The notes under the pieces are model-generated. The model was not told the origin of the DNA. It did not search any database and was given only the letters and a program-made list of their open reading frames with translations. 32,000 nucleotides of DNA from Herminiimonas sp. (GTDB lineage: Bacteria; Pseudomonadota; Gammaproteobacteria; Burkholderiales; Burkholderiaceae_D). The DNA is taken from assembly GCA_027310305.1 (NCBI GenBank), contig DAIDBD010000007.1:217114-249113 (forward strand), read 5' to 3'. Positions within the stretch are counted from its first letter, which is position 1. Every line of letters starts with the position of its first letter. The translations under genes and the position numbers were made by a program. This document shows positions 17,996 to 25,691 of this stretch, piece after piece.

Positions 17996-18603
17996 TATTC
18001 CACGCCGATTCGCCCCGCCACGCTGGCGACGGTGGCAATCAGCTCGGATGGTTCGACGGGTTTTGATACATGTACCGAAAACCCCGCGCGCAATGCCTTG
18101 GTCCTGTCCTCGGAGCGCGCAAACGCAGTCAACGCAATTGCAGCCACCGCGCCGCCTTTTGCCGCTCCGAGCGCGCGTACTCGTCTGAGCAGTTCAAAGC
18201 CGTCGACGTCGGGCATGCCGATATCGGTGACCAGAATATAAAGTGTAGCGCTCACGTGTTTCAGCATTGGTGCGGCTTCTGACTGTGTTGGCGTCAAAAA
18301 TAAATTGACACTAGTCACGAGAACGATCCCTGCCGCGGTCACCGTCCTCCGTGAAAAAACTTCCCAAAGTGACCTTTGACCGGTCTTTTCTGCCCTATCA
18401 ATCCCTGCAGCCATTAGTACGGTAGATGGCTCAATTTCTAAGGCCAACGCAACGGCTAAGCACGTTTCTTCATCCATGACTCTACGGCCATTCATGTAGT
18501 GGCTCATGGCACTTGAACCAACACCTAATTTCTTAGCAACAGCAGCATCATTTTTCAGTTCGTACTTTTCACGAACCTTCTCCAAAAATTTAATGCTTCG
18601 CAT
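17995..18603 (-). CDS. Chimeric ORF: phage XRE-family repressor (aa 1-123, bases 18603-18235) fused in frame to the C-terminal half of a host receiver domain (bases 18234-17998)
   Basis: N-terminal HTH (DAAVAKKLGVGSSAMSHYMNGRR), then a hydrophobic segment (TVTAAGIVLVTSVNLFL). After ...SATLYI comes host sequence LVTDIGMPDVDGFELLRRVR...LTAFAR...GFSVHVSKP, which is REC beta3-alpha5. SD AGGAG lies before the ATG. Confidence 0.8.
   Translation of the reverse strand: MRSIKFLEKVREKYELKNDAAVAKKLGVGSSAMSHYMNGRRVMDEETCLAVALALEIEPSTVLMAAGIDRAEKTGQRSLWEVFSRRTVTAAGIVLVTSVNLFLTPTQSEAAPMLKHVSATLYILVTDIGMPDVDGFELLRRVRALGAAKGGAVAAIALTAFARSEDRTKALRAGFSVHVSKPVEPSELIATVASVAGRIGVE
18226..18253 (-). other. Left (attL-type) hybrid site: phage GAGCGCTACAC-TTTATA joined to host TTCTGGTCACC
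   Basis: This is the junction of phage and host sequence. It shares AATAT (18235-18239) with the right junction. Confidence 0.55.
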
Positions 18604-18612
18604 ATTTCACTC

Positions 18613-18858
18613 CTAATTTCTGATCACTGCACCGCGATCACGACACAGTTTCGACATTGCTCTATCAATTGCTTCCATCGTCTTTAGGGATGGTTCAATC
18701 GTTCGTTCACGCTCAATAAGTCTAATAGCTGTTTCTTTGTCGCTATTGCAAGCCTTAATAAGCTGGTTCATCAAACGTATTTGATTGCGCCGTCTCTCTT
18801 CGGGAGAAGGTTTAAGGACAGATTCAGTTTTCTTTCCCCAAAACGAAAATAATTTCAT
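18613..18858 (-). CDS. Phage hypothetical protein (81 aa), first gene of the leftward repressor operon
   Basis: ATG at 18858 with SD AGAGGA. The repressor gene follows 9 bp downstream. No family recognised. Confidence 0.55.
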   Translation of the reverse strand: MKLFSFWGKKTESVLKPSPEERRRNQIRLMNQLIKACNSDKETAIRLIERERTIEPSLKTMEAIDRAMSKLCRDRGAVIRN

Positions 18859-18866
18859 TTTTCCTC

Positions 18867-18898
18867 TTGACAATGTTTACATGTGTAAAGTACTTTAC
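18867..18898. promoter_or_regulatory. Divergent promoter/operator region: TTGACA plus overlapping palindromes TTTACATGTGTAAA and GTAAAGTACTTTAC
   Basis: A -35-like TTGACA lies at 18867-18872. Perfect palindromes lie at 18876-18889 and 18885-18898. They share TTTAC/GTAAA half-sites and sit between the repressor operon and rep. Confidence 0.6.
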
Positions 18899-18927
18899 GC
18901 CTGTACACATTACAACTGTGAATTTTA

Positions 18928-20226
18928 ATGAACTCTAAGACCAAAAACGTAGTAGGTCAAGTAAACGCGGCTTTCAAGCCTGCGGCGGGGTTCCCCGCGC
19001 TAGCGGGGGCCGTGCCGCAGGCAGGTAACCCCACAGTAAACGCGGCCCTAAGCGCGTCAGCTTGTACCCCCATTAATAACATGGGGGAAAACTACGGGGA
19101 CGTCGAACACTGCGGTTTTGTCGATCTGGTTTTATCAGATTCCGGCAAATTAAAAACTGTCATGGTGCGCAAACCTGCTCAAGATCAGATGTGCATCGTG
19201 GATTGGATCAATTTCACTATCCTTGAAGACACTTGGTTTCGTACAGCTAGGCAAACGCTCGTCACTGACGACGAAATCATCCTCGAAGCAAGCCGCTACC
19301 TCGAAAAAATATTCGGCTTCGGCATCACTGAAAAACGCGCAACGGGAATGAATTTCTATCAAAGCTCATGGATTCTTGGCGACGATATGGGCTTCGTCTG
19401 TTTCGGTGGTCAGCGTCAAACCATGCTCATAACTTTAACCGGCCAAGGCTGTACCAATGCCCACGCCGGATGGGAAAAAAGACTCCATGAATTCCTCACA
19501 ACTATTGCTGTACGCCCCTCTATCTCTCGCCTTGATCTGGCTCATGATGATCTTTCCGGCAGCTATTTGTCGGTTGATTGGGCAGAGTCTCAATGGCATG
19601 AAGGAGGGTACTCAATGGCAGTCGGAGGAAGGCCGCCTTCTATTGAGCGCATTGGCAACTGGCACCGACCCAGCGGAAAGGGCCGCACTCTTACGATTGG
19701 TCTCCGCACTTCCGGGAAATTCTGCCGATTCTATGAAAAGGGAAAAAAGGAAGGGGACAAGCTCTCCACCTGGACAAGATGCGAAGTCGAATTCAAAAAT
19801 TCAGATCGCGTCATCCCGTTCGATGCGCTGCTGAACCCAAGCGATTTTTTCAGCGCCGCGTATCCATGCTTTTCCGAATTCGCGCATGTCGTCACACCGC
19901 GTCGGATGGAAATCAAACAGAAAACAGCACAGGTCGTAATCGACGCCTGTATCGAAGTCACCAAGCACCAGTTCGGAAAATACCTTCGCGTATTCCGTGA
20001 TCTGTACGGTGATAAAGCCACCCTCGACATGGTCTGTCACGCCGATAAAAACGCATGGCCCAAGCGCATGAAGCCTCTCACCGCGACAGCGGAAACTGGC
20101 GCAACATCGATTCACAAAGTAGTAGAAGTACCGACGTTTATCTCGTTCATTCAAGCAGTCCCATCCTTCGGCCTCAATCGGGAAAATTTCTTTCCAGAGC
20201 CGAATCACTACGCAATGGAGCATTAA
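18928..20226 (+). CDS. Rolling-circle replication initiator (Rep_trans / phage replication initiation factor family)
   Basis: LDLAHDD..., GLRTSGKFCRFYEKG and TRCEVEFK resemble the R.Y(D/E)K ... E.E core of Rep_trans proteins. It is first in the rightward operon, as in other inoviruses. The true start may be the ATG at 19081. Confidence 0.8.
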   Translation: MNSKTKNVVGQVNAAFKPAAGFPALAGAVPQAGNPTVNAALSASACTPINNMGENYGDVEHCGFVDLVLSDSGKLKTVMVRKPAQDQMCIVDWINFTILEDTWFRTARQTLVTDDEIILEASRYLEKIFGFGITEKRATGMNFYQSSWILGDDMGFVCFGGQRQTMLITLTGQGCTNAHAGWEKRLHEFLTTIAVRPSISRLDLAHDDLSGSYLSVDWAESQWHEGGYSMAVGGRPPSIERIGNWHRPSGKGRTLTIGLRTSGKFCRFYEKGKKEGDKLSTWTRCEVEFKNSDRVIPFDALLNPSDFFSAAYPCFSEFAHVVTPRRMEIKQKTAQVVIDACIEVTKHQFGKYLRVFRDLYGDKATLDMVCHADKNAWPKRMKPLTATAETGATSIHKVVEVPTFISFIQAVPSFGLNRENFFPEPNHYAMEH

Positions 20227-20228
20227 AA

Positions 20229-24450: not shown

Positions 24451-24612
24451 TCAAAAAGGAATACTATCAGCGGCCATGACGGCCCCTTCCAGATCCTCGA
24501 TAGCGCCGATTGTCAAATCAAACGATCTATATTCATGGATAACGCGCCTTGCAGCCTCAATCAAATCATTCTTTATTTGATCCCCTTCGCCTTTATTATT
24601 TTCGATAGTCAT
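24451..24612 (-). CDS. Phage accessory hypothetical protein (53 aa, acidic)
   Basis: MTIENNKGEGDQIKNDLIEAARRVIHEYRSFDL... Its start overlaps the upstream stop (ATGA at 24612-24609). Confidence 0.45.
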   Translation of the reverse strand: MTIENNKGEGDQIKNDLIEAARRVIHEYRSFDLTIGAIEDLEGAVMAADSIPF

Positions 24613-24899
24613 TTTGCGCACCTCAAAACGCCTTGCAACAGATGGCCGTCGTAATCCATGATCTGCGCAACCAGCTTGCGCATGCTCGCGCAAACGAATT
24701 GTTTACCGTCCGGTCTCGTCCAGACGAAACCGGCCTTACCTTTTTTGTACAGCTTCCGCAGATGCAGTTTCAACGGAATTTGCTTCCACGAAGTCAGCAT
24801 GTTGTGCGCTTTTGCAACGGCCTTGCGCACGCGTTTGAAGTTGCCGAGATACTCCTGAAACGGGAAGTGCTTCAACGGTAATTCAAGTTGCTTTTCCAT
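24609..24899 (-). CDS. Phage accessory hypothetical protein (96 aa, basic)
   Basis: First gene of the leftward module, rich in Lys/Arg. No family recognised. Confidence 0.5.
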   Translation of the reverse strand: MEKQLELPLKHFPFQEYLGNFKRVRKAVAKAHNMLTSWKQIPLKLHLRKLYKKGKAGFVWTRPDGKQFVCASMRKLVAQIMDYDGHLLQGVLRCAK

Positions 24900-24969
24900 G
24901 ATCTGCGCCTTTCGTTTTTAAGCTGACCTAGCCCGAAGATTTCGAGCCTATCGTAAGAATTTGAAAAAT

Positions 24970-25200
24970 CGGTAGTACCTGCCTTCGATGCTGCCGCCCA
25001 TCCCGTTAGTTCGTCGCCTGTCACCGAATAGGCGGCGCAATAGGCGATTTGTGCAAGGGGAGGCTTCGAAAGTTTTTGCGCTTATGCCCGAAGGGACATG
25101 CAAAAAGTTTTGGAGTCCCTTGCACAAATTGACGCGCCGACTATCGTTGACAGATCAGCGACGAACTAATGGGATGGGCTGCTTCGACGGAGTACGGACT
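24970..25200. repeat. Long imperfect inverted repeat (multi-stem hairpin) in the phage non-coding region
   Basis: Paired segments are 24998-25017/25158-25177, 25018-25038/25134-25153, 25047-25059/25117-25129 and 25069-25079/25100-25110. Confidence 0.8.
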
Positions 25201-25258
25201 GAATTTTTCAGGAATGACGCTTGCGTCATCTGACTAGGTTTCATGCAGTGAACGCACA

Positions 25259-25651
25259 GTGATTCTCTGGCCGTTGGAAGATGGACGCCGGTTCACCAGG
25301 TCGAATGTGCCCGTAAGCGGGTTGGCTAAATCAACAAAAAAGATTTTCAGATTTTCATTACAATTCTGCGCCGTGCAACTCGAATTATTTTCATGGGACT
25401 ATCTCTCTGACTCTGAACGCCAACAAATTTACGGCGACATTCGGAATGCATACTGGCACGTACGGACTTTAAGAAAAGGCCGCTTCGGTCAAGCGGCGTT
25501 GCGCAAGAAGTACCGACAAATCGAAGGGCAAAAAAAACGCCTGCAACTGGCAGGCGTTGAAAAGCGCGAAATTCTCGATTTGCTAGCTTGCTGCCGGCTG
25601 AAGTGCAGCGGCAAAAAACAGCCGTTTAAGCCGTGCCCATACTGCCGATAA
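25259..25651 (+). CDS. Questionable phage ORF (130 aa, GTG start, no internal Met) with a C-terminal Cys cluster
   Basis: No SD and no ATG. The C-terminus is CCRLKCSGKKQPFKPCPYC. The 3' end is antisense to the reconstructed repressor tail. Confidence 0.3.
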   Translation: MILWPLEDGRRFTRSNVPVSGLAKSTKKIFRFSLQFCAVQLELFSWDYLSDSERQQIYGDIRNAYWHVRTLRKGRFGQAALRKKYRQIEGQKKRLQLAGVEKREILDLLACCRLKCSGKKQPFKPCPYCR

Positions 25652-25663
25652 TTTCTTGAGTAC

Positions 25664-25691
25664 ATTTAACATAATATGCGGTCTGTGCATT
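25664..25691 (-). other. Right (attR-type) dif-like hybrid site: host AATGCACAGAC-CGCATA joined to phage TTATGTTAAAT
   Basis: The minus strand at 25674-25664 reads TTATGTTAAAT. This is identical to the XerD-binding arm of the E. coli/proteobacterial dif consensus. It abuts the AATAT junction repeat (25673-25677). Confidence 0.65.

Follow-up and report, generated by a model that had tools for sequence, protein, structure and literature searches.

Probable XerD-side insertion of an integrase-less, RSS0-like inovirus with a one-armed attP into a weak non-dif pseudo-site

Phages that exploit the host Xer recombinases are thought to be strictly dif-targeted, hence the arrays in which they are found at this one locus and the use of dif scanning to find them. 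XerC cuts the top strand at the border between the XerC arm and the centre of the site, while XerD cuts the bottom strand at the border between the centre and the XerD arm, and ligation requires two to three paired bases beside the cut. To our knowledge, XafT is the only phage activator described for XerD-first recombination. As a rule, XerD is catalytically active only with the help of FtsK at the septum or, in TLC-phi and related elements, with that of XafT (DUF3653; PMC6744903), and XafT drives the XerD-first integration of the satellite phage TLC-phi itself (PMC6744903, PMC9226527). One-armed attPs of 17 bp have already been described (PMC12715192), and the attP of phage RSS0 is reported to be a dif sequence embedded in the reverse-oriented repressor ORF13 that is used via XerC/D (PMC4471427). 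Here we analyse a 32,000-nt stretch of Herminiimonas sp. DNA (contig DAIDBD010000007.1; this full stretch is referred to as the window) in which an inovirus prophage of the RSS0-like kind interrupts a receiver-domain coding sequence. The phage class is known; the unusual part is the off-target, non-dif coding site together with a readable XerD-side crossover in a phage without XafT.

The prophage is complete and extends from 18240 to 25672 on the plus strand (7433 bp, plus one copy of a 5-bp AATAT core). It is an intact inovirus, with Rep, the Gp8 coat protein and Zot encoded in a compact co-directional block, and its GC content is 47-52% as opposed to 56-64% in the flanks. Searches with Pfam, PHROGs and tblastn (using the integrases of its relatives) found no integrase, transposase or resolvase in the element, as had been claimed in the first-pass annotation of this DNA, and the tblastn search found no integrase homologue anywhere in the window. 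Compared with integrative mobile elements exploiting Xer (IMEX), the element likewise encodes no integrase or transposase of its own, and its dif-like site combines a canonical arm with a 6-bp centre. It does not lie at chromosomal dif, however, nor is dif regenerated at one of its junctions, the XerC-side arm of attR matching at 6/11 positions.

With sites written from the XerC side to the XerD side, the attL 28-mer (18226-18253, minus strand) reads GAGCGCTACAC-TTTATA-TTCTGGTCACC, comprising the degenerate phage arm, the phage centre and a host arm, and the attR 28-mer (25664-25691, minus strand) reads AATGCACAGAC-CGCATA-TTATGTTAAAT, comprising a host arm, the host centre and the phage XerD arm. 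On the plus strand, these left and right junctions are GGTGACCAGAA-TATAAA-GTGTAGCGCTC and ATTTAACATAA-TATGCG-GTCTGTGCATT, respectively. Joining the prophage ends reconstructs an attP of the form GAGCGCTACAC-TTTATA-TTATGTTAAAT (plus strand, ATTTAACATAA-TATAAA-GTGTAGCGCTC), while joining the host flanks reconstructs an attB of the form AATGCACAGAC-CGCATA-TTCTGGTCACC; the predicted junction stretches are ...GCGCTACACTTTATATTATGTTAAATGTAC... for the circular attP and ...CACAGACCGCATATTCTGGTCACC... for the empty attB. AATAT, the crossover core, which reads ATATT on the minus strand, is indeed present in the two copies noticed previously, at 18235-18239 and 25673-25677, and the insertion is conservative in that neither phage nor host lost or gained bases. 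The perfect XerD-binding arm TTATGTTAAAT (25664-25674, minus strand) is the sole match to this 11-mer in the window, even when one mismatch is allowed, and the element contains only one XerD-like arm at two or fewer mismatches. Base composition alone would give 0.0065 matches per window and 2.4e-5 in the +/-30 bp around the two junctions, which upholds the earlier view that such a match is unlikely to be due to chance. Over 17 bp, TTTATA-TTATGTTAAAT of the joined ends is identical to the dif of Undibacterium (L026).

The interrupted host frame is on the minus strand, reading ...AGEALALVEMHRPHI and then LVTDIGMPDVDGFELL... from 18234. Its upstream part runs as ...ALVEMHRPHI to an Ile codon at 25675-25673 and the frame resumes as LVTDIGMPDVDG... 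at 18234; the first-pass annotation had correctly described the split of the receiver but placed the end of the upstream part at 25678, a slip of 3-5 nt with no consequence. Joining the flanks restores a receiver that aligns without gaps across the junction with homologues of 60-71% identity, and the consensus of these homologues is RPH[IV]L[VI][ST]DIGMPDVDG (ERPHVLVSDIGMPDVDGFELL) with P121 and the phospho-acceptor D127 invariant. A search for an uninterrupted allele closer than 71% identity found none. On the minus strand, 17995-18234 encodes the receiver's C-terminal part (LVTDIGMP... through to the stop codon), and the other host remnant (25673-26059, minus strand) contains the tail of a HATPase_c domain, a linker and the N-terminal part of the receiver. 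A single receiver domain is therefore split, as had been proposed, but it does not belong to an intact response regulator: the gene is a 5'-truncated pseudogene, the 3' remnant of a hybrid histidine kinase in which only the last ~30 residues of HATPase_c precede the receiver, with stop codons upstream and the remaining kinase sequence missing. That the phage landed in a pseudogene may explain the persistence of the lysogen. Within 25673-26655 (minus strand), the kinase/receiver pseudogene also overlaps by ~50 bp with the end of a 215-aa open reading frame (ORF) whose product shows weak NCBIfam similarity to the N-terminal part of cobalamin-independent methionine synthase, and an older rearrangement junction lies near 26010-26060. 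At the left end, integration joined the phage repressor (121 aa) in frame to the last 81 receiver residues (ORF 17995-18603, minus strand, 202 aa); the 3' end of the repressor runs through attL, and the fusion is annotated as one 202-aa gene in the metagenome.

As the centres of the two sites are not alike, the sequence itself shows where the crossover took place. attL keeps the centre TTTATA and attR keeps CGCATA. We assign CGCATA to the host and TTTATA to the phage because CGCATA encodes part of Pro-His-Ile within RPHILVTD, where Pro121 is invariant and TTTATA would give Leu-Tyr, and because TTTATA is the centre of the dif/attP sites of the relatives, including the near-identical module at locus L035 (see below); the assignment of the attB centre rests on protein conservation in homologues of at most 71% identity. 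Each junction thus keeps the centre of its XerC-side partner, which places the exchange point within ATA|TT, that is, the three centre bases by the XerD arm and the first two bases of the arm, and these are the only bases that attP and attB share. On this comparison, the crossover is XerD-sided and adjoins the point of XerD cleavage, where XerD-first elements exchange strands. Since ATA supplies the homology needed for ligation, the observed products are those expected of an XerD-catalysed exchange, whereas exchange of the XerC-cleaved strand alone is excluded by the junctions as we read them. Nor does the locus have the XerC-side centre homology and XerC-only exchange of the VGJ-phi class, the centres being identical on the XerD side only.

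The relatives of this phage indicate which target would be expected. A Rep profile search returned 4 IMG/VR loci and 22 genome loci, mostly Oxalobacteraceae (Herbaspirillum, Massilia, Duganella, Janthinobacterium, Undibacterium and others) with 61-69% Rep identity to the window phage, and these divide without overlap into integrase-less phages at dif and integrase-bearing ones at tRNA genes. A PF00589 tyrosine integrase accompanied by direct repeats of 47-61 bp, tRNA-derived by appearance, is found in L011, L012, L015, L017, L019, L021, L023 and L028, and integrase homologues are also present in L008, L009, L016, L018, L022 and L024. In the integrase-less loci with both ends visible (L006, L010, L013, L020, L025 and L026), the left boundary on the minus strand consists of a degenerate arm, a centre and TTATGTNAAAT, while the right boundary is a full dif. 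Five of the six have ATTTCGCATAA-TTTGTA/TTTATA-TTATGTNAAAT, or a site differing little from it, as this full dif, which corresponds to the Oxalobacteraceae dif (ATTTCGCATAA-TTTRTA-TTATGTNAAAT), and L010 has AGTGCACATAA-TGATCA-TTATGTTAAAT; L007 carries the phage of L006, with only the left site on its contig. Integration at dif is seen in all six and in L035, a locus reached through a protein (P0122) that is 90% identical to the product of the last ORF of the window phage. There, ~770 bp match window positions ~24905-25672 at ~93% identity and abut a canonical dif, CCTTCGCATAA-TTTATA-TTATGTCAAAT (as read along the match, ATTTGACATAA-TATAAA-TTATGCGAAGG). Sequence comparison places the window phage with its integrase-less, dif-type relatives by every feature but the target. 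At L010 (Herbaspirillum sp., 9133-9160 and 15925-15952), the two centres differ (TTAAGA vs TGATCA) and the junctions share just the XerD arm and one base; this locus may represent a second XerD-side crossover or the product of successive events.

The attP of the window phage is likewise typical of this group. It is situated between the 3' end of the gene for a helix-turn-helix (HTH) repressor of the XRE type (18240-18603, minus strand; Pfam HTH_19/HTH_3, phrog_638) and a small conserved gene, a 130-aa ORF (25259-25651, plus strand; core 25373-25648), the 3' end of which is 12 bp from the XerD arm. The family of this small gene, which has neither a Pfam nor an NCBIfam model, has more than 249 members; the proteins are ~90 aa long and end in a tail with the motif CCx3Cx(7-11)CxxC. 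Besides the window, its loci include L006, L010, L013, L020, L025-L027, L035, L039, L040, L043-L122 and RSS0 (L123, 6488-6740), and the distance from the 3' end of the gene to the canonical arm of the adjacent dif-like site is always 12-80 bp. All 11 dif-type loci examined have the gene, and the integrase-type relatives all lack it. Among 80 metagenome loci collected with the family profile, a full dif directly follows the gene in 44, while nine have a one-armed site and then a convergent HTH repressor gene, the arrangement of an unintegrated attP; the remainder are unclassified (14) or without usable sequence (13). Unintegrated attPs of this form between small gene and repressor are found in L044, L069, L075 (where the site reads ATTTGACATAA-TATAAA-TTGGTTGTGGC), L086, L100, L103 and phage RSS0, and the joined ends of the window phage have the same architecture and the same flanking genes. 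The candidate attP of the first-pass annotation thus takes the one-armed form of unintegrated relatives and of RSS0. By the same comparison, the poor XerC arm is the norm for the family and not a peculiarity of this copy, and the phage does not represent a new attP class; what survives of the earlier suggestion of an unusual variant is the off-target coding site. Two circular IMG/VR genomes, L039 (1914-1941) and L040 (4579-4606), also contain the module, and in them the good arm is that of XerC. Inside this one phage family, the attP accordingly comes in two versions, in which the good arm is either XerD (L044, L069, L075, L086, L100 and L103) or XerC ATTTCGCATAA (L039, L040, L045, L050 and L053), and both are placed alike with respect to the repressor and the small gene. 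On one 17.9-kb contig (Ga0210409_10003393), L069 and L071 are two related phage copies in tandem, the inner junction having the attP form and the outer one a full dif, as in the tandem arrays at dif that are known in Vibrio.

These features can be compared with those of the described systems. The Ralstonia RSS0/RSS1 group (Restivirus) resembles the window phage in being beta-proteobacterial inoviruses with a Rep_trans protein and no integrase, and RSS0 has its attP within the 3' end of the repressor ORF13 (PMC4471427), as here, where the 3' end of the HTH repressor gene, in reverse orientation, contains the site and the small gene flanks it from the opposite side. The RSS0 site, ATTTTACATAA-GATAAA followed by a degenerate arm, is inside ORF13, and an unannotated homologue of the small gene stands just before it. 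Protein identity between the RSS phages and the window phage is low (Rep <40%, small gene 45-59%), and RSS phages are reported at the R. solanacearum dif whereas the window phage is in a coding sequence. The Vibrio CTX-I inoviruses and PM2-like phages share the layout of repressor, attP made of XerD arm and centre, and small terminal gene, and the 17-mer ATTTAACATAATATAAA of the window phage is identical to the reported attP of PM2 (PMC12715192). However, their terminal gene is XafT (DUF3653), to which that of the window phage is not homologous, and is co-directional with the repressor instead of convergent with it; these elements are described at dif only (PMC12715192). The likeness to TLC-phi lies in junctions that require XerD-side exchange, independent of canonical dif context, and in the retention in the window pseudo-site of both XafT-critical bases. 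In contrast, TLC-phi encodes XafT and the window phage does not, in the attP of TLC-phi the XerC arm is the good one and the XerD arm the poor one, the reverse of the window phage, and the degenerate partner is the phage site in TLC-phi but the chromosomal site here. CTX-phi and VGJ-phi are integrase-less inoviruses, like the window phage, and employ host XerC/XerD. They use XerC-first exchange, which the junctions of the window exclude, and the attP of CTX-phi is folded single-stranded DNA with two inverted dif-like sites, while the window element has one arm only.

Putting together the observed anatomy of the element and its junctions, the use of dif by the family and the position of the crossover, we consider it probable that this integrase-less RSS0-like inovirus was inserted by host XerC/XerD, via XerD-side exchange at its one-armed attP, into a weak non-dif pseudo-site. 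The phage is a temperate beta-proteobacterial RSS0-like inovirus without an integrase, with a one-armed dif mimic between the 3' end of its repressor gene and the small conserved gene as attP, and phages of this kind are as a rule integrated at chromosomal dif by XerC/XerD. Here, the double-stranded phage circle would instead have recombined with the weak dif look-alike AATGCACAGAC-CGCATA-TTCTGGTCACC in the histidine-kinase/receiver pseudogene, truncated before the phage arrived, XerD catalysing a bottom-strand exchange with ATA|TT as the sole shared bases. The resulting Holliday junction would then have been settled by replication, or by a second exchange and segregation of the mismatched centre. 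XerD was presumably activated at a place other than the septum, for which the small gene adjoining attP may be responsible, and the prophage would now be hard to excise because attL has two poor arms. Integration by Xer at a non-dif pseudo-site had been raised as a question in the first-pass annotation, and it gains support from the division among the relatives, the form of attP, the module at dif in L035 and the coding target with its 15/28 match.

The quality of this target bears on how the event should be regarded. Against the Oxalobacteraceae dif consensus the pseudo-site scores 15/28 (6/11, 3/6 and 6/11, the values for the arms agreeing with those given before), which ranks it by dif similarity among the best 0.06% of all 28-mers from the host DNA of the window. 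Among 49 sites with an in-register ATATT, the pseudo-site alone has at least 10/23 further matches (binomial p ~0.04). Its inner arms form an imperfect palindrome, CAGAC...TTCTG as compared with CATAA...TTATG, in which innermost bases 1 and 5 of the XerD arm are kept (TTCTG vs TTATG). These are the critical positions when the phage factor XafT activates XerD, and XafT lets Xer recombine dif with very degenerate partners if inner base 1 or 5 of the XerD arm is kept (PMC9226527). The event is best seen as a rare misfire and not as the use of a second dedicated target.

Several alternatives have to be weighed against Xer-mediated, XerD-side insertion. The reaction could have been Xer-mediated but have taken the usual FtsK-independent, XerC-first route of CTX and VGJ phages, with top-strand exchange finished by replication; this is the default for most known Xer-using phages (PMC6744903) and would suit a phage without XafT. 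It predicts, however, an attR composed of host arm, TTTATA and XerD arm and an attL composed of phage arm, CGCATA and host arm, the opposite of what is seen; the two centres share no XerC-side base (CGC vs TTT) and both XerC-side arms are poor, and we regard this route as quite unlikely. Illegitimate recombination unrelated to Xer, in which a break or replication slip occurred at the ATATT microhomology and the attP breakpoint arose by chance, gains some credit from a shared sequence of 5 bp only and from the poor dif match of the host site. It is nevertheless unlikely, since the breakpoint coincides to the base with the boundary between centre and XerD arm in the phage's own attP, where a random breakpoint of a 7.4-kb circle would fall ~1 in 1000 times, the insertion is conservative in both partners, and partial arms, among them the inner palindrome, lie in register at the host site.

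A recombinase acting in trans, such as an integrase or transposase encoded by some other prophage or island of this genome, is a very unlikely agent. The thought is prompted by the tyrosine integrases of close relatives and by the extent of the inspected DNA, which is the 32,000-nt window of the contig. Yet the integrases of the relatives go with 47-61 bp tRNA-derived repeats, of which there are none here; there are no transposase-type inverted repeats or target duplications and no integrase homologue in the window; and the junction falls in an Xer-type attP, while integrase-bearing relatives have neither that attP nor the small gene. We give hardly any credence to an assembly chimera, in which the assembler joined phage to host sequence. 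In its favour, every independent metagenome contig that carries this prophage stops within window 24753-24839, which points to a repeat-like ambiguity close to the right end, and the right junction is seen in one assembly only. Against it, the left junction is reproduced with 0 mismatches in L001 and L002, metagenome assemblies independent of this record, L001 being 100% identical to the window over 16221-24807 with this junction included. Moreover, the host flanks fit together exactly as the two halves of one conserved domain, overlapping by 5 bp, a fit that would not arise in a chimera. Because the left junction recurs in L001 and L002, the insertion is not an assembly artefact of the present record; it is real and stable in a natural population. 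The match to L035 starts at ~24905, just right of the contig ends, and suggests that the right-end module of small gene and attP is an exchangeable cassette shared with another element in those samples.

The proposal of XerD-side Xer insertion has its own weak points, which we set against it here. That XerC/XerD performed the reaction is something we infer from sequence comparison, and the host's own dif and xer genes lie outside the window. The phage has no DUF3653/XafT homologue, and the substitute that we propose is put forward from gene position and co-occurrence. Site choice is poorly explained because 31 sites in 24.5 kb of host DNA are equal to or better than the pseudo-site in their dif match. 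Metagenome contigs searched with degenerate patterns for attP, attB, attL and attR yielded none, and hence neither an empty site nor a circular junction, and exact left-end and right-end patterns found nothing in viral contigs. A second assembly of the right junction was not found in the public data searched, and no second clear off-target case was seen among ~100 family members, 14 loci of which are unclassified.

The small gene would provide a candidate for the missing activity. It holds the place of xafT in Vibrio CTX-I and PM2-like elements and tracks the dif-type attP perfectly in our sample; on position and co-occurrence we hypothesise that it encodes an Xer accessory factor. The predicted product has three helices and a four-Cys tail (predicted local distance difference test score, pLDDT, 84), for which there was no significant fold match in PDB or BFVD and, for the protein as called here, no matching record. 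Homology to XafT/DUF3653 was considered and rejected, as Pfam gave no match and hhalign against the PM2 P15 family gave a probability of 0.7%. A six-frame hidden Markov model search of the element and six relatives found no DUF3653, so that the phage, as far as this search shows, does not encode the DUF3653 XerD-activation factor that characterises the XafT class. A neighbouring gene in L102/L105 was likewise rejected as DUF3653-like, having no Pfam or NCBIfam support. It is conceivable, though we hold it doubtful, that this small Cys-rich three-helix protein is a second kind of phage XerD activation or synapsis factor, unrelated to XafT/DUF3653, which would enable XerD-first recombination of a one-armed attP away from the septum and, rarely, integration at degenerate non-dif sites.

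If the proposed route is correct, this natural non-dif insertion indicates that the Xer system can misfire into coding DNA, and we found no report of an Xer-using phage inserted in a coding sequence in the open-access literature (weak evidence of absence). It is also one of few natural cases in which the crossover point can be read, here on the XerD side, and it argues that a widespread beta-proteobacterial group, including the RSS phages of a plant pathogen, may use XerD-first recombination without XafT, with the small gene adjoining attP as a specific candidate gene. Prophage finders that need dif motifs on both sides would misplace the borders of this element.

The remaining genes of the prophage are as follows. 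Next to the repressor is an 86-aa phage ORF with no family match in Pfam or PHROGs (18613-18873, minus strand), followed on the plus strand by the Rep_trans rolling-circle replication initiator (18928-20226; Pfam E 6.8e-22) and a 100-aa protein (20229-20531; phrog_4994, function unknown) that is conserved among relatives and, by its position, is a putative single-stranded DNA-binding protein. The structural and assembly genes, also on the plus strand, encode the Gp8 major coat protein (Phage_coatGP8; 20941-21159; Pfam E 6.6e-13), a 535-aa pIII-like minor coat/adsorption protein recognised by its position and Ser/Thr-rich linker (21166-22773; phrog_4544), a pVI-like minor coat protein (22773-23099; weak DUF5455 match, phrog_1944) and the Zot/pI assembly ATPase (23099-23959; Pfam E 2.7e-21). 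Three small accessory ORFs of 79, 80 and 96 aa point leftward at 24177-24899 (minus strand), the 96-aa ORF matching phrog_19405. No near-identical phage record was found for the element and no near-identical plasmid record for its flanks.

Elsewhere in the window, a 712-aa ORF with 64% GC (27392-29530) has no Pfam match, and its C-terminus is weakly similar to a Slam-dependent surface lipoprotein (NCBIfam E 2e-7, below cut-off). On the other side of the prophage lie, in this order, an intact hybrid histidine kinase (3536-5047), a 138-aa ORF and a KaiC-like double-domain ATPase (5505-6968), an arrangement that suggests a KaiC-linked signalling cassette spanning 3536-6968.

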